DNA from: a virus
Virus record (IMG/VR): IMGVR_UViG_3300031649_000001
Coordinates: 47,262-111,261 of that record
Reading direction: 5' to 3' (one strand)
DNA: 64,000 nt
Each line of letters starts with the position of its first letter. Positions within the stretch are counted from its first letter, which is position 1. The notes beneath the pieces were generated by a model that did no database searches, was not told the origin of the DNA, and worked only from the letters and a program-made list of their open reading frames with translations. Of the stretch, positions 5,426-63,805 are shown piece after piece. The position numbers and the translations under genes are program-made.

Positions 5426-5500
5426 TCCCATCCACGCAGATCGACCCTCCGGGCGGGCGGCTGACCGGCCGCCCGCCCGGCCGTACGTCCTGGAGGCGCC

Positions 5501-8500
5501 GTGGCTCTGGCCGAGTACGACGACGTGTACTGGTTTCCGGACGGGACGCTCGCCCGGAACATTCCCGCGCGCGTCTTCCCGGAGCACTCCAACGAGTTCG
5601 CGACCCTCTACACCGACGCCACCGGCGACACCGAACTCCCCAATCCCCTCAACACCGACAACGACGGCCGCCTCACCTTCTGGGCCGAAGCGGGGATCTA
5701 CTGGATCCACATCGACAGCGAGTCCATCCGCGTCGGCGTCGGCACCAGCGAAGAGGGCGTGACCCCGGCGCAGGTCGCGGCGGCCATCGCCGCACACAAC
5801 GCCGACCACACCGACGTCCACGGCATCGTGGAGACGGCGGACCTGGCCACGGATGCGGAGCTGGCCGCACACGCGGCCGACACCACGAGCGTGCACGGCA
5901 TCGCCAACACGGCGCTGCTGGAGACGCAGGCCGGGGCACAGGCGAAGGCGGACGCGGCTCAGGCGGCGGCCGAGGCGAACGCCAGCGCCGACGCCGCCGG
6001 GCAGATCTCCGAGGCGCGCGGCGAGCTGGAGGAGGACATCGCCGCCGGGGACGCCGCGCAGGCTGCGGCGCTGGCCGCGCACGCCGCCGACACGACCAAC
6101 GTCCACGGCATCCCCGACACGGCCAACATCCCCACGAACGCCGAGTTCGAGCAGGTCCAGGCGGACCTCGCCGCGCACGAGGCCGACACCACGGCGGTGC
6201 ACGGCATCGCGAACACGGCCGACCTGGCCACCGACGCGGATGTGGCTGCGGTGGCGTCGGGCCTGGCCGATCACGTCGCCGACACGACCGGCGTCCACGG
6301 CATCGCCAACACCGCCGACCTGCTCACGACCGCGGACCTTGAGCAGTACGCCACCGACGCGGAGCTGGCCGCTCACGTCGCCGACACCACGGCGGTCCAC
6401 GGCATCACGGACACGGCCGACCTGGTCACGAGCGCGGATCTGGCCGGGCTGGCGACGGACGCCGAGGTGGCCGCCGTCCAGGGCAACCTGGACGCGCACG
6501 CCGCCGACACCACGGCGGTGCACGGCATCGCGAACACGGCCGACCTGGTGACGGATGCGGATCTGGCCGGGCTGGCGACTGAGGCCGCCCTGGAAGCCCA
6601 CGCCAGCGCCACCACCGACGTCCACGGCATCACCGACACCGGCGACCTGCTGACCCAGGCCGACCTGGACGAGTACGCCACGGACGCGGAGCTGGCCGCG
6701 CACGCGGCCGACACCACGGCGGTCCACGGCATCGCGAACACCGCCGACCTGGAGACGGCCACCGGCGCCCAGACCAAGGCCGACGCCGCCCGTGACGCGG
6801 CCATCGCCGACGCCGCCACCAAGTACCTCAACCGGCTCACCGGCGGCACCGTGACCGGCGACGTGATCATTGAGGGGGCGAACCTCACCGTCCAGAAGCC
6901 GGACGACGCGGGCGGCTACCGGCTGCGCACCACCGGCTCCTCCAACGACCTGGACGTCTCCCTCGAAACGTTCGTGTCGTTCTTCGCGAACCCGGACTTC
7001 TCGGGGACGCAGACGCCGCTCATGCGGTGGGAGGCCGCCGGGCCTCACCTCATCGGGCACGTGCAGATCGGCTCCAACCCCTACGACTCCGTCTTCGACT
7101 TCGACGCTGCTGCCGCCGCCGCCACCTTCAACGGGGACCTCACCGTCACCGGCGCCCTGAACGCCAACGGGGTGACGGACTGGATCAACGCCAGGACCCA
7201 CGGCGCCACCGGCGATGACGTCACCGACGACATCGACGCCCTGGAAGACGCCGTGCAGGCGTGCCCGCTGGGCGGTGTGGTCTACCTGCCCAACGGCCGC
7301 TACCGCACCTCGCGGACGCTGTACGTGCCGCCCGGGGTGACGGTGATGATGCCCCACGCCAACCTGATGGCGGTGCCGGGCATCACCGACCCGCCGTGCT
7401 CCATCAAGCCGCTCGATGAGTTCACCGGCCCGGCCGCCATCGGGTTCCTCAACCAGACGGCAGGCGGCTACCCGGCCATCCCCGCAGAACACCGCCTGGT
7501 CAACGTGATGATCGACGGCTCCGCCTACACGGCCGCCGCGCTCGACGGCATCCAGGCGAAGGGGAACATCCAGAACATCTGCATGTACGGCTGCACCATC
7601 CGCTACATGTCCGGCAATGGCATCTACACCGACATCGGCGCCGACAGCGTGTTCCCGTACTCGTGGCGCCTCTACAGGGTCATGATCGACAACTGCGACG
7701 GGCACGGCTTCGCGTTCAACGTGATGACCGACATCACCCTTTTCGACTGCCAGTCCATCGGCAACGGGGCGAACGGCTTCTACCTGCGCAACCTGGCCAA
7801 CTCGCAGATGTCGCTGTGCCGGGCGGAGTGGAACGGCAACCACGGCTACGCCTTCACCGGCGACTGGGGCGAAGGCGCCGGTGCGGGGGCGCTGGTGGCG
7901 TCGGGCTGTTCCACGGACCGCAACGGCTGGGACGGCATCCACGTGGATGCGACCGGCACCACACCCATCGTGTTCAACGGGCTCATGCTGAGGCGCGACG
8001 GCCGCAACAACGGCGCCGGGGGCGGCGGGTACGCGGCCCTGGCCACCTACGCGGCCACCATCCCCATCGTGGTGGACGGACTGACCGTCTACCCGGGCAC
8101 CGACGACAACGGCACCGGCACCTCATCCCCGGAGATGGGCGTCAACCTCCAGGCCGTCACCGAGGCGTTCACCCTCGACAATGCATATATCCACGTAGCC
8201 ACGACCCCGCTCAACGACGACGGCACCAACCTCCGCGTCCAGCTCGGCCCGAACATCATCCGCGCCACCGGCCCCACCACCGCCCCCGTAGTGGCGCCGG
8301 TGTCGGCGTGGAACTGGGCCGGGACGGCGACCGCCCAGCAGGAGGCCGCCGCCGACAACGTCCTGGAGACGCTGATCGCGGGCGAGGACTTCCCCCGCTC
8401 GGTCATCCGCGCGGATGGAATGGTGGTGTTCGGCGGCGGCACCGTCGCGCCGGACACACCGGGCTGGTACCGCGAGATCGGGGGCAACCTCAAGACCGAC

Positions 8501-8839
8501 TCCTACGTGAACATGAACTCCGGCGGCCAGTCCGGCGGCCCCTTCACCTCCTGGGCGGCCGACCCCAAGGCGCTGCGGGCGGGCGCCGGAGGCGGCGGAC
8601 TGTCCGTCGCCGAGGGCGCCAACGGCCGCCTGGGGGTTGCCACGCTGGTGGCCGGGACCGTGACCGTGGCCAACACCAGCATCACCGCCACCAGCCGGAT
8701 CTTCATCACGCGGTCCGCCGCCGGGGGCACCCTCGGCCACCTCACCGTCACCAAGAACGCGGGCGTGGGCTTCACCGTCACCAGCTCCAGCCCGACCGAG
8801 ACATCCACCGTGGAGTGGTTCGCGGTGGAGCCGTCGTAG
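5501..8839 (+). CDS. Fibre/spike protein: His-repeat stalk plus pectate-lyase-like beta-helix (depolymerase-like)
   Basis: Nine AHxADTTxVHGIxxTADL repeats; GATGDDVTDD...GGVVYLPNGRY beta-helix cap; repeated NGxxG motifs. Confidence 0.8.
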   Translation: MALAEYDDVYWFPDGTLARNIPARVFPEHSNEFATLYTDATGDTELPNPLNTDNDGRLTFWAEAGIYWIHIDSESIRVGVGTSEEGVTPAQVAAAIAAHNADHTDVHGIVETADLATDAELAAHAADTTSVHGIANTALLETQAGAQAKADAAQAAAEANASADAAGQISEARGELEEDIAAGDAAQAAALAAHAADTTNVHGIPDTANIPTNAEFEQVQADLAAHEADTTAVHGIANTADLATDADVAAVASGLADHVADTTGVHGIANTADLLTTADLEQYATDAELAAHVADTTAVHGITDTADLVTSADLAGLATDAEVAAVQGNLDAHAADTTAVHGIANTADLVTDADLAGLATEAALEAHASATTDVHGITDTGDLLTQADLDEYATDAELAAHAADTTAVHGIANTADLETATGAQTKADAARDAAIADAATKYLNRLTGGTVTGDVIIEGANLTVQKPDDAGGYRLRTTGSSNDLDVSLETFVSFFANPDFSGTQTPLMRWEAAGPHLIGHVQIGSNPYDSVFDFDAAAAAATFNGDLTVTGALNANGVTDWINARTHGATGDDVTDDIDALEDAVQACPLGGVVYLPNGRYRTSRTLYVPPGVTVMMPHANLMAVPGITDPPCSIKPLDEFTGPAAIGFLNQTAGGYPAIPAEHRLVNVMIDGSAYTAAALDGIQAKGNIQNICMYGCTIRYMSGNGIYTDIGADSVFPYSWRLYRVMIDNCDGHGFAFNVMTDITLFDCQSIGNGANGFYLRNLANSQMSLCRAEWNGNHGYAFTGDWGEGAGAGALVASGCSTDRNGWDGIHVDATGTTPIVFNGLMLRRDGRNNGAGGGGYAALATYAATIPIVVDGLTVYPGTDDNGTGTSSPEMGVNLQAVTEAFTLDNAYIHVATTPLNDDGTNLRVQLGPNIIRATGPTTAPVVAPVSAWNWAGTATAQQEAAADNVLETLIAGEDFPRSVIRADGMVVFGGGTVAPDTPGWYREIGGNLKTDSYVNMNSGGQSGGPFTSWAADPKALRAGAGGGGLSVAEGANGRLGVATLVAGTVTVANTSITATSRIFITRSAAGGTLGHLTVTKNAGVGFTVTSSSPTETSTVEWFAVEPS
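5791..6750 (+). repeat. Nine tandem coding repeats (GCCGACACCACGGCGGTSCACGGCATC core)
   Basis: Direct repeats visible at DNA and protein level. Confidence 0.9.
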
Positions 8840-8880
8840 CCTGACCGGACCAACCTGAACCGCCGACCGGGGGAGGCCCA

Positions 8881-62860: not shown

Positions 62861-63080
62861 TCCCCGTGGACGAGAGCGACAGGACGGCGCGCGGTGAAGG
62901 GTGGCACTTCGTGGACGGGCGGGTGGTGGCGTGCTGCGAGGAGGGGGAGGACGACTGCCCGTGCACGTGTCACGACCGGGCGGCCGGGGGGCCGCCCGCC
63001 CGCCCGGCCGGGTGACACGAGATACGGGCGTGAGGGTCGCTCAGCATCCCGTGAGCGGCACCGGCCGGGCCGCTGCGCAC

Positions 63081-63326
63081 TCACGGCTCAGCTCCGCCCT
63101 CCTGGGGCTGCCCGGGGCGGTACATGACCGTGGGCCCGGTGCCGCGCGCCCGCACGATCAGCCCCTCGTCCGCGAGCGCGCCCAGGACCAGGGAGGCCTG
63201 GGACCGGTTGAGCCCGTGGATCTGCATGAGGTCGGCCAGCGCGGGCGCCCGGGAGCCGGTGGGCCAGTCGCCCCGGCGGATGGACCGGCGCAGCCGGGCC
63301 AGGACGTCGGCCGCGTCCGGCGTCAC
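63081..63326 (-). CDS. GntR-like winged-HTH protein
   Basis: LRRSIRRGDWPTGSRAP...LADEGLIVRARGTG. Confidence 0.8.
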   Translation of the reverse strand: MTPDAADVLARLRRSIRRGDWPTGSRAPALADLMQIHGLNRSQASLVLGALADEGLIVRARGTGPTVMYRPGQPQEGGAEP

Positions 63327-63727
63327 CGGCCGTCCGCCCGGCCGCCCGCCCGCTCCCTGAGCACCGGCACGAGTTCCGCCGCTGCCGCGATGGCGTCGTC
63401 CCAGTCGCCGGTGAAGGGCACGGCGCGGTCGTCGATGTAGGCGTGGGCGGGGTACTTGCGGTTGGTCACCAGCAGGACGCCGCGCCGGTTCCAGAACTCC
63501 AGCCCCAGGGTGCCGTCATCGGCCAGCGTCTCGAACTCGCCGTGCTCGGCGAGCCACGCCGCGACCGGCGCGGCCGGGCGGGTGGTGTGGATGAACACGG
63601 AGTCGATGGCCATGAGGCCGCGCAGGGCGGCGAAGGCGCCGGGTGTCTCATCCCCGTAGATGGAGCCGTCCTGCCAGCCCCGGGTGTAGTCGTGTACGGG
63701 GACGTCGAAGTCAACGGAGATCGTCAT
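63323..63727 (-). CDS. HAD-superfamily phosphatase/nucleotidase-like protein
   Basis: ISVDFD, IHTTR, K.PAHAYIDDRA. Confidence 0.8.
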   Translation of the reverse strand: MTISVDFDVPVHDYTRGWQDGSIYGDETPGAFAALRGLMAIDSVFIHTTRPAAPVAAWLAEHGEFETLADDGTLGLEFWNRRGVLLVTNRKYPAHAYIDDRAVPFTGDWDDAIAAAAELVPVLRERAGGRADGR

Positions 63728-63805
63728 GTCGGCATTGTCCCGGGCGGGCGCCCGGCCGCCCGGCCGCCCGGCCGGGCACTGTGTGATCCGCGCGGACGGA
63801 ACCGG

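Follow-up and report, generated by a model that had tools for sequence, protein, structure and literature searches.

What is the role of a 12-bp palindrome that recurs dozens of times, within genes as well as between them, in an element of Streptomyces? The question is raised by a 64,000-bp stretch of viral DNA, in the following called the window, which comprises bases 47262-111261 of the 111,261-bp IMG/VR virus record IMGVR_UViG_3300031649_000001 (G000). All positions refer to the window unless they are given as genome positions. The palindrome, ATCYNCGNRGAT, is very probably a protein site on duplex DNA, and we consider it about an even bet (probability roughly 0.5) that its copies are dispersed operators for the global transcription control of the element, recognized most likely by a dimeric DNA-binding protein that the element itself encodes.

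An earlier reading of the same stretch, made from the letters alone (the sequence-only reading), had counted about 30 copies and estimated that well under one should occur by chance. Both statements hold. The window contains 30 exact matches, located where that reading had placed them, whereas 100 dinucleotide-preserving shuffles yielded 0.19 on average and at most 1. Allowing up to one mismatch increases the number to 58, versus 4.4 expected and a maximum of 11 in the shuffles; the near-matches reported at 13446, 13724 and 56670 all read ATCCACGCAGAC in sense orientation. The whole record harbors 59 copies, 58 of them unique and one doubled by an overlap of the contig ends, and 0 copies of a reversed control pattern. 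Sixty-seven instances of ATC-N6-GAT are present, 59 of which fit the motif, versus 1 to 29 for other ATC/GAT spacings. The enrichment amounts to ~400-fold relative to chance and ~30-fold relative to codon-shuffled genes.

The codon-shuffled control, which had been proposed together with a count in the host chromosome, refers to a crude gene call based on the G+C content at third codon positions (GC3) that yielded 151 genes covering 87% of G000. Thirty copies lie wholly within called genes, whereas 300 synonymous shuffles within genes left 1.09 on average and never more than 5, and one-off variants, mainly those ending in ...GAC, are found 2- to 3-fold over the codon-shuffled level. GC3 is 94.8%, GAT accounts for 6.5% of the Asp codons, and any frame able to hold the motif requires at least one A/T-ending codon, which indicates that the genic copies have been paid for in codon usage. 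The use of A/T-ending codons against the GC3 bias, noticed before, is true of every genic copy. Twenty-nine copies touch non-coding DNA (14.8 kb, 13% of the genome), and the site density is 2.0 per kb in non-coding versus 0.31 per kb in coding DNA.

The assembly of Streptomyces andamanensis PCU 347 contains 52 copies, 39 of which are located on a single 106,095-bp contig (C11) that is collinear with G000 at 65-84% identity; the other 13 are found in the remaining 8.8 Mb, for which ~11 are estimated from the composition. Two other Streptomyces genomes have 18 copies in 5.7 Mb and 11 copies in 7.1 Mb. The enrichment is confined to the element and absent from the host chromosome. Low counts in the shuffled controls as well as in the host genome favor the observation, and chance or composition as the origin of the motif is rejected on the strength of both kinds of shuffle, dinucleotide and codon, and of the host chromosome. 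A maximum-order Markov screen of 8-mers was uninformative, since the model absorbs the signal. A 14-mer scan of IMG/VR yielded one copy per stretch in the 80 listed of at least 119 loci, and the sole relative recognized among these listed loci is G001, a 108,671-bp virus contig that is collinear with G000 at 65-88% nucleotide identity.

The full form of the site is an 18-bp dyad, YYN-ATCYVCGBRGAT-NRR, in which two ATC(C/T)(A/G/C)C half-sites are joined at the central CG; one example of an 18-bp duplex bearing the motif is CCTGATCCACGTGGATCAGG. The flanking positions -3/-2 are nearly always pyrimidines and +2/+3 purines, in genic and intergenic copies alike. The motif is invariant in its A, its T and its central CG; among one-off variants positions 3, 6, 7 and 10 do not vary, and position 5 is never T. 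Neither the RNA nor the coding level readily accounts for a dyad symmetry that is kept within reading frames; a homodimer on duplex DNA would produce it. The sequence-only reading had proposed binding sites of a dimeric phage protein that coats, silences or segregates the genome. This is supported in part: the symmetric flanks, the purifying selection described below and the element-only enrichment all speak for a site read by a dimer on duplex DNA, and they fit coating, silencing and segregation alike. For one of its candidate proteins, at 50406, no DNA-binding family is detectable in profile searches. A DnaA box, suggested by the half-site ATCCAC, was considered and rejected, given that DnaA boxes have an invariant CACA, which is disrupted in the half-sites ATCCGC, ATCCCC and ATCTGC.

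The placement of the copies falls into recurrent contexts. The stop/RBS junction described by the sequence-only reading is real: the common form is cTGA-TCCACGCAGAT-aGAGGA..ATG, also written as c-TGA-TCCACGCAGA(T/C)-(a)GAGGA..ATG, in which TGA terminates the upstream gene and the purines following the motif form the ribosome-binding site (RBS) of the next one. The junction copies share a longer module, TGATCCACGCAGA(T/C)-agaGAGGACCAAGCC-ATG. Eight copies in G000 are fused to a stop, and 16 of 59 have a start codon at most 40 nt downstream. The perfect 16-mer at 36874-36889 provides both TGA stops of a convergent gene pair, just as had been read from it. The junction and stop-fused copies of the window are as follows, with a strand where one is assigned, here and in the lists below.

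12946-12957, plus strand: junction copy ATCCACGCAGAT, preceded by a hairpin and followed by agagagcgc-ATG of gene 12967-13446
13446-13457, plus strand: near-match ATCCACGCAGAC, fused to the TGA stop of gene 12967-13446, then agagagaggaccaagcc..ATG
13724-13735, plus strand: near-match ATCCACGCAGAC, fused to the TGA stop of gene 13479-13724, then an RBS and the ATG at 13756
36874-36889: perfect 16-mer TGATCCGCGCGGATCA, whose two TGA are the stops of the convergent genes 36418-36876 (plus) and 36887-37165 (minus)
38957-38968, minus strand: copy fused to the TGA stop of gene 38968-39606 (minus), then a hairpin
42145-42156, minus strand: junction copy, in sense ATCCACGCAGAT, fused to the stop of gene 42156-42521 (minus), then agaggaccaagccac-ATG of gene 41440-42129 (minus)
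43401-43412, minus strand: junction copy fused to the stop of gene 43412-43723 (minus), 18 nt upstream of the ATG of gene 42518-43384 (minus); retained in G001
46518-46529, minus strand: copy fused to the TGA stop of gene 46529-47404 (minus), one of the WELLYDK genes described below, then a hairpin
56670-56681, minus strand: near-match, in sense ATCCACGCAGAC, at a junction, then aaggagagccgtc-ATG

This arrangement recalls the start-associated sequences of Cluster K mycobacteriophages, which are conserved, located immediately upstream of many starts and merged with the RBS (PMC3203893). A comparable signal at the RNA level might govern translation, coupling or processing between cistrons. The start-proximal and stop-fused copies of G000, their common module and the preference of the intergenic sense strand for ..GCAGAT (A at position 9 in 14 copies, T at the mirror position 4 in 1) all agree with such a function. 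However, half of the copies are either genic, in all three frames, or located ahead of the transcript next to a promoter, the genic copies have symmetric flanks as well, and in C11 just 6 of the 39 copies are near starts and 3 are stop-fused. Start-associated sequences are asymmetric and tied to translation starts, whereas about one quarter of the copies here is start-proximal (16 of 59 near a start, with 30 genic and 8 beside promoters). A 12-nt palindrome is unable to form a stable hairpin, and in our view the strand bias fits equally well an avoidance of RNA self-pairing near the RBS, so that the GCAGAT preference may reflect weaker self-pairing of the sense RNA within the range of tolerated half-sites. 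An RNA-level signal is, on balance, very improbable. Pairing of UGAUCC with the tail of the 16S rRNA was rejected separately: its order relative to the Shine-Dalgarno sequence (SD) is wrong, and the extra G is present in only 38% of the half-sites.

The second context is a family of at least 13 promoters with the structure GAGACAC/GTGACAC..TTGCR-N18-AATACT..GTGTCAC, followed by a GC hairpin in the leader. In seven of 13 family promoters the motif ends exactly 16 nt upstream of the TTGC (-35), and in an eighth the distance is 24 nt. The sequence-only reading had placed six window copies just outside a promoter dyad, and these indeed lie upstream of the TTGC -35 box in a repeated cassette, each ending at a distance of 16 nt from it. 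The center of the promoter-adjacent site is near -58 relative to a guessed start site, and none of the copies extends into a core promoter. Two copies bracket the DUF932 operon promoter, the second one lying just downstream of the -10 box. The promoter-adjacent copies of the window are the following.

55880-55891, minus strand: in sense ATCCCCGTGGAT-tgatgagacacggggt-TTGC(-35)
56278-56289, minus strand: in the same cassette as at 55880
58567-58578, minus strand: ATCCACGTGGAT, at a promoter within the long open reading frame (ORF) called at 57774-58802
59425-59436, plus strand: upstream of WELLYDK gene 59532-60017
60171-60182, plus strand: upstream of WELLYDK gene 60283-60795
61832-61843, plus strand: upstream of WELLYDK gene 61945-62499

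The promoters themselves are of interest apart from the motif. Each of them sits in two dyads, TTGCAT..ATGCAA and GTGACAC/GAGACAC..GTGTCAC, and the leader hairpin has the form GGGGGG-loop-CCCCCC; family members are found at window 55863-61922 and additionally at 10393, 43789 and 47493. The GACAC half-sites are reminiscent of a short motif that has been reported for WhiA of Streptomyces.

The remaining copies of the window are intergenic or located within genes. The genic copies occur in all three frames and mostly encode I-x-x-D or S/T-x-G/W. Of the gene labels of the sequence-only reading, 'RecT', 'fibre' and 'tape measure' are without Pfam confirmation, and the Cas4-like PD-(D/E)XK label has a sub-threshold Pfam match only (20.8 bits compared with a cut-off of 22). 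The intergenic and start-associated copies are listed first, followed by those within genes.

5430-5441: ATCCACGCAGAT, intergenic, 5 nt past the stop of gene 4853-5425, with a GC hairpin behind it; retained in G001 and C11
19760-19771: ATCCGCGTGGAT, intergenic
19983-19994: ATCCGCGTGGAT, 23 nt upstream of the tyrosine-recombinase gene 20017-20976
21334-21345, plus strand: ATCCACGGGGAT, 9 nt before the ATG of gene 21355-21816; still present in G001, and as ATCTGCGCAGAT in C11
46000-46011: at the start of gene 45556-46005 (minus), after a hairpin; both relatives keep the site with changed variable positions
7937-7948: ATCCACGTGGAT, in gene 5501-8839, encoding I-H-V-D with a rare GAT codon
8125-8136: ATCCCCGGAGAT, in gene 5501-8839
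8405-8416: ATCCGCGCGGAT, in gene 5501-8839, encoding I-R-A-D
14409-14420: ATCCCCGCAGAT, in gene 14364-14912, encoding I-P-A-D; GAC in G001
17992-18003: ATCCGCGTGGAT, in gene 17786-18127
18689-18700: ATCCGCGCGGAT, in gene 18659-19009
23347-23358: ATCCCCGTGGAT, in gene 23275-23841; retained in both relatives (G001 and C11)
27563-27574: ATCCACGGGGAT, in the 1226-aa gene 24816-28496
28922-28933: ATCCACGCAGAT, in gene 28545-29306
52025-52036: ATCTGCGTGGAT, in gene 51187-52410
52773-52784: ATCTACGCGGAT, in the PD-(D/E)XK nuclease-like gene 52407-53522
53984-53995: ATCCGCGTGGAT, in gene 53526-54038; retained in G001
63650-63661: ATCCCCGTAGAT, in the 5' part of 63323-63727 (minus), the first gene of an operon ending in a GntR-type gene

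Many copies are located at the borders of cassettes, where a terminator hairpin is followed by the motif and then by a promoter or RBS. This order could suggest a recombination linker that promotes the exchange of cassettes between related elements. In the comparison with C11, 23 of 69 junction-associated homology breakpoints are found at motif-bearing junctions versus 20% expected; in the comparison with G001, however, the corresponding number is 14 of 65 (22%) versus 20% expected, which is no excess, and breakpoints are mutually dependent. Taken together, the two comparisons do not reveal a clear excess of breakpoints at the motif. Thirty genic copies are incompatible with cassette borders, the element has no evident recombinase dedicated to a 12-bp site, and the core sites of tyrosine recombinases are longer than 12 bp and have a spacer. 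We accordingly give a role in recombination very little credence.

The conservation of the motif in the collinear relatives provides a further line of evidence. G000, G001 and C11 contain 59, 39 and 39 copies, respectively. Seventeen intergenic copies of G000 can be aligned to G001; 15 of these are still valid sites, with an identity of 0.90 within the motif versus 0.75 in the flanks, and the intergenic substitutions are confined to degenerate positions, for example from CAC to CGC or TGC. Some sites hold the pattern despite four substitutions, and one site is ATCCACGGGGAT in G000 and ATCTGCGCAGAT in C11. Among 18 genic copies compared between G000 and G001 six are retained, and six more differ by GAT versus GAC alone. 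Genic copies are subject to turnover, with gains and losses through GAC/GAT switches. Across three genomes of 70-85% identity the pattern of the motif is under purifying selection, with drift within the consensus at the degenerate positions. The contexts vary among the three genomes, indicating that the conserved trait is the presence of many copies with an intergenic preference rather than any single placement.

More distant relatives are four phages or prophages of 48-59 kb with a terminase 62-74% identical, which contain 0, 4, 1 and 1 copies of the motif. The four copies belong to G003 (IMGVR_UViG_3300027528_000003), a complete 52-kb genome with terminal repeats, and all of them are in regulatory-looking positions: upstream of the DUF932 gene, an arrangement shared with G000; at the 5' end of a Rep-like winged helix-turn-helix (wHTH) gene; in an intergenic region; and fused to a TGA stop. 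A small number of operator-like sites may represent the older state, and the genome-wide spread may be a trait of the ~105-110 kb lineage. No alternative genome-wide palindrome was found in the motif-poor 50-kb relatives, the only feature of this kind being a local iteron cluster in G003. It is situated in the Rep-like gene (287 aa, L347:18738-19601), whose 3' half has five tandem repeats of 22-45 bp, each holding the palindrome GTCACGTGAC (iteron) and read as HTPSRD peptide repeats; they probably represent an origin inside the initiator gene. The same gene has its one copy of the 12-bp motif at codons 6-10, counted from an internal ATG.

The nature of the element can be deduced from its gene content and from the behavior of its contigs. 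G000 has 71% G+C and a completeness rating of 98%. It encodes a terminase and structural genes, a ParA/MinD ATPase, a tyrosine recombinase, an HU-family protein, a TET/JBP dioxygenase beside a protein with a ParB N-terminal domain (ParB-N) and DUF932; DNA methyltransferases (including C5 and N4/N6) and serine recombinases were searched for in G000 and not detected. The IMG/VR entry is linear and without end repeats, yet the contig ends overlap by 126 + 135 identical or near-identical bases with a 107-bp indel between them. The overlap is located at window 63633-64000 and genome 1-243, and the 107-bp insertion itself holds the near-match TGATCCGCGCGGAC; the difference between the two copies represents either population heterogeneity or an assembly artefact. 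G001 and C11 are broken at points other than G000, and this observation, together with the overlapping ends, indicates that the replicon is circular or circularly permuted. Homologues of one G000 protein are present on 103-115 kb contigs of several further Streptomyces assemblies, which add family members in S. longwoodensis (109,842 bp), NPDC059278 (103,011 bp) and a JGI assembly (114,657 bp), and circularly permuted contigs of the whole element occur in assemblies of Streptomyces isolates. Streptomyces sp. NPDC051907 and a JGI contig of 88,123 bp belong to the family as well. ParA, the tyrosine recombinase and these permuted contigs point to the lifestyle of a plasmid prophage, and we infer that the element is a temperate Streptomyces phage-plasmid. 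A megablast comparison of 20 kb of the window with GenBank phages retrieved a 201-bp endolysin stretch as the sole match. The ~105-110 kb Streptomyces phage-plasmid family is previously undescribed. The two genes that bear on its maintenance are located as follows.

Genome 14869-15588: ParA/MinD-type ATPase
20017-20976: tyrosine recombinase

Dispersed sites of this kind are known from other actinophages; this motif is new, with an unusually high density and the fusion to stop codons, RBSs and promoters. The closest resemblance in kind is provided by the Cluster O mycobacteriophages (Corndog and relatives), whose 17-bp palindrome TGTTCGGNNNCCGAACA is present in >30 copies (PMC4351075). Both are dyads with a genome-wide distribution, intergenic or near starts, with about one third of the Cluster O copies within genes, and no meaningful orientation, assigned function or binder; >30 dyad copies, genic as well as intergenic and kept in relatives, are also characteristic of the present motif with its 59, 39 and 39 copies. 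In contrast, the Cluster O palindrome has 7-bp arms and a 3-bp spacer instead of abutting 6-bp half-sites, the sequences are unrelated and the host is another one. The Cluster O phages are not obviously temperate and lack parAB, whereas the present element has ParA, a recombinase and a separate contig in isolates, and its motif is joined to stop codons and RBSs as well as to one promoter family. Repetitive extragenic palindromic (REP) sequences and miniature inverted-repeat transposable elements (MITE) do not match, because only 12 to 18 bp are conserved, the flanks differ except in a few duplicated cassettes, and half of the copies are genic.

The sequence-only reading aptly compared the motif with stoperators, start-associated sequences and parS. 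In Cluster A mycobacteriophages, stoperators (L5 gp71 type) comprise dozens of copies of one short site across a temperate genome, which presumably block elongation (PMC9283540). The motif shares with them the occurrence in dozens of copies, in short gaps and overlapping with stops and starts: 59 copies, 29 of them touching non-coding DNA, 8 stop-fused and 16 near starts. Stoperators are asymmetric 13-mers, bound by a monomeric repressor and strictly oriented with transcription, whereas the present motif is a palindrome and half genic, and a strand bias is seen only in the ..GCAGAT sub-variant of the intergenic copies. In L5, as Brown and colleagues reportedly described in 1997, one repressor silences the whole genome via an elongation block.

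A similar principle would explain the distribution of the palindrome as a set of dispersed operators. The 40 to 60 sites would serve the whole replicon. Copies upstream of the promoter family, and just downstream of at least one such promoter, would set promoter activity; those between a stop codon and the next RBS would act as roadblocks to transcriptional run-on within operons, and the genic copies would add further roadblocks. One protein would thereby hold ~100 kb of genes under common control. A plasmid prophage must keep ~100 kb of lytic genes quiet, and global silencing thus fits the lifestyle of the element. The enrichment, the symmetry, the context classes, the conservation and the absence from the host are observed directly; what we infer from them is that a protein binds, which protein this is, and that it acts as a repressor or roadblock.

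Several observations weigh against global control by dispersed operators. No copy is located on a core promoter, so repression by occlusion is not evident, and the site at -58 could equally be that of an activator. The motif is palindromic, whereas stoperators are asymmetric and oriented. The spacing has a coefficient of variation of 0.78-0.91 versus 0.97 for random placement, which is indistinguishable from random scatter, with neither regular spacing nor clustering of the copies detected. In G000, a stretch of 7.5 kb around parA is devoid of copies, and the homologous region is the largest gap in C11, which is suggestive and not significant; a largest or near-largest site-free gap over the ParA region in two of the three genomes fits the operator reading weakly. 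C11 has 0 promoter-adjacent, 3 stop-fused and 6 near-start copies among its 39, and such differences in the context classes between relatives imply that no single context is essential. Moreover, Pfam, PHROGs and NCBIfam searches with ~100 proteins retrieved few DNA-binding matches, none of which could be tied to the motif.

The site-poor surroundings of parA also bear on partition. A protein of the ParB/KorB/Noc type, working as a clamp or bridge together with the element's ParA, might load or be anchored at the sites and serve compaction, positioning or segregation, silencing being secondary. Chromosomal parS and Noc sites are palindromes of 14 to 16 bp centered on CG, and the ten-base core TCCACGTGGA of the motif is identical to that in the canonical parS TGTTCCACGTGGAACA, from which the best form of the motif, TGATCCACGTGGATCA, departs at position 3 and the mirror position 14 alone; a variant centered on CCCGGG is reminiscent of the Noc site. 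The spread of the copies across the replicon, genic ones among them, resembles that of Noc and KorB binding sites. The KorB operators (OB, TTTAGCSGCTAAA) of RK2 are 12 palindromic sites, some at a fixed distance upstream of promoters and others remote, and KorB is a ParB-family protein with a full CTPase motif and a helix-turn-helix (HTH) that silences genes and partners ParA. Scattered palindromes, a fixed distance at seven promoters (16 nt to the -35), thirty intragenic copies and the presence of ParA resemble this system, but RK2 has 12 sites versus ~58 here, and the ParB-N protein of the element has a degenerate nucleotide-binding motif and is encoded 8 kb from parA. Compared with parS TGTTNCACGTGAAACA, every copy has A instead of T at position 3 together with its mirror; the center is CAC, CGC, CCC or TGC; and instead of clustering at a par operon or origin, the copies have a random-like scatter that leaves empty the very region where centromeres normally cluster. 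Centromere-like repeats were not found near parA. Two parS mismatches abolish ParB binding in vivo in P. aeruginosa, which makes the host ParB an unlikely binder, discounted here on the sequence of the sites.

The candidate for such a clamp is the ParB-N protein.

Genome 23984-24799: ParB-N protein, 271 aa, with the motif 3 nt upstream of its ATG, overlapping its own SD

It matches the PHROG 'ParB-like partition protein' (1.9e-35), and the N-terminal half of its AlphaFold2 (AF2) model aligns to Noc, ParB and KorB structures, weakly with TM 0.3-0.46. However, it has SHNHVTQA in the place of the GERRxRA box for binding of cytidine triphosphate, a profile search did not detect HTH_ParB, and the model is poor in the C-terminal half. 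Its closest wider relatives are not partition proteins but ParB-N domains fused to DNA methylases, and the gene is part of a DNA-modification operon. A single full-length relative is present in IMG/VR (83% identity over residues 1-270 of 271), and among 401 Streptomyces genomes only S. andamanensis has one (78%, residues 2-270). The related genome G002 encodes a 41% identical ParB-N homologue and ParA and has 0 motif copies. Loading sites of a partition clamp are consequently an unlikely explanation.

The operon of the ParB-N gene offers another explanation, in which the sites might be marks for base hypermodification: the ParB-N protein would read the palindrome and recruit a TET/JBP dioxygenase and a glycosyltransferase, and the modified sites would form epigenetic borders of operons. 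Base J of kinetoplastids is an analogue of such epigenetic punctuation. The operon at genome 23984-28049, upstream of the terminase, encodes ParB-N, an Rv2179c-like exonuclease, a glycosyltransferase-like protein and Tet_JBP (66 bits), and as the search for C5 and N4/N6 methyltransferases gave no match, the modification could conceivably be JBP-like and directed at thymine. Only four of seven related genomes, namely those with TET and glycosyltransferase homologues, contain the motif, and its A, T and central CG are invariant. But many other genes show the same presence/absence pattern, including DUF932, WELLYDK and recombination genes, and the genomes are not independent samples; furthermore, a modification target alone leaves the selection for many copies and the fixed placement at promoters unexplained. 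Marks for hypermodification are thus quite improbable.

Genes limited to the four motif-bearing genomes include TET/JBP, the glycosyltransferase-like gene, DUF932, a recombination module and the WELLYDK family. The WELLYDK module is a basic stretch of ~65 aa with conserved Cys/His (GWELLYDKP..YALIC..H.H..L..E..R..WCPSC) that is located C-terminally behind unrelated N-termini. G000 has seven genes of this type.

11669-12910: WELLYDK gene, module ending at 12907 (plus strand)
46529-47404: WELLYDK gene, module aligned at 46532-46771 (minus strand)
57774-58802: WELLYDK gene, module aligned at 57777-58013 (minus strand)
59532-60017: WELLYDK gene, module ending at 60014 (plus strand)
60283-60795: WELLYDK gene, module at 60556-60792 (plus strand), a candidate binder
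60932-61675: WELLYDK gene, module ending at 61672 (plus strand)
61945-62499: WELLYDK gene, module ending at 62496 (plus strand)

The module counts in the four motif-bearing genomes are 7, 7, 4 and 1, versus 0 in the three without the motif, and four of the seven G000 genes have a motif-bearing promoter. An AF2 model predicts four strands and a helix with Cys/His ligands (pLDDT 81). Comparison with the PDB by sequence profile, Foldseek and VIA-align gave no significant match (best Z 4.4; MeCP2 methyl-CpG-binding domain with E ~1), and the ESM Atlas was uninformative. A tblastn search retrieved no phage match and one plasmid match, namely WP_266914621.1 of the Streptomyces plasmid NZ_CP108007.1, in which a similar module is joined to a canonical HNH nuclease. 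This fusion suggests a nucleic-acid-targeting role of the module; the plasmid has a single motif copy in 297 kb. Apart from the plasmid protein, WELLYDK homologues are confined to this element family. As for the 342-aa ORF 57774-58802 (minus), it spans a complete cassette of promoter, leader and RBS, and the real WELLYDK gene therefore probably starts at the ATG after the cassette; a separate small gene rich in Cys may account for the upstream part.

A rather improbable but far-reaching extension is that the palindrome represents the common address of a new DNA-binding WELLYDK zinc module, with which at least seven N-terminal domains would be delivered as effectors to the same 40-60 sites, and/or that it guides the hypermodification by ParB-N, TET/JBP and glycosyltransferase at operon borders. 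The absence of a significant fold match, the co-occurrence that is common to other genes and the confinement of the module to one lineage argue against it.

Other potential binders of the sites are located in the window.

63081-63326, minus strand: GntR-type wHTH protein, 81 aa, no effector domain; Pfam GntR 5.9e-08, NCBIfam HutC-like N-terminus
23860-24801, minus strand: double-HTH protein, 313 aa, a lone reverse gene; HTH_23 and HTH_Tnp_1 below cut-off, PHROG terminase-small-subunit HTH 2.4e-14
44530-44823, minus strand: HU/IHF-family protein in a long leftward operon; Pfam Bac_DNA_binding 2.4e-23

The binder candidates named by the sequence-only reading have fared differently. The protein at 63081 is a GntR-type wHTH protein and the one at 23860 has weak matches of the HTH or terminase-small-subunit type, whereas no DNA-binding family was detected for 50406 and the case for WELLYDK is circumstantial. 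The GntR-type protein is present in G001 and C11; tblastn did not detect an ortholog in G003, whose only weak GntR-profile match lies in the Rep-like gene. The double-HTH protein is conserved in the three large genomes and was not found in G003. The HU/IHF-family protein is a possible architectural partner of the binder; the HU-like TF1 of phage SPO1 reportedly prefers hydroxymethyluracil DNA, which is relevant here if the TET/JBP enzyme acts on thymine. In a rough apportioning, a protein outside these candidates, which may also be one of the host, has the largest share without reaching even odds; the WELLYDK module is a tentative and the ParB-N protein a doubtful choice, the GntR-type protein is improbable, and the double-HTH protein is very unlikely.

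A binder of the host would imply that the element has accumulated the sites in order to recruit or titrate a Streptomyces protein. The motif is common to G000, G001, C11 and G003, which share few recognizable regulators, and no element protein could be linked to it. The host chromosomes are nevertheless unenriched, with the 13, 18 and 11 copies in 8.8, 5.7 and 7.1 Mb reported above, and many of the 13 host copies in S. andamanensis have T/A at positions 5/8, a combination that the element never uses; we know of no host regulator with such a site. Recruitment or titration of a host protein is hence improbable.

An actinophage genome reveals few cis-regulatory features directly, dispersed short repeats being one of them, and among these repeats only stoperators have a known mechanism so far. 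The signal described here is unusually clean, with ~58 copies versus none expected, an 18-bp dyad, a cost in rare codons within genes and its presence in three diverged genomes. The family furthermore possesses ParA, a TET/JBP dioxygenase and a private promoter family, and one of its members resides in S. andamanensis PCU 347. If the binder is a global silencer, the palindrome would provide a handle on the control of lysogeny in Streptomyces phage-plasmids and a compact, orthogonal operator/repressor pair for Streptomyces engineering.

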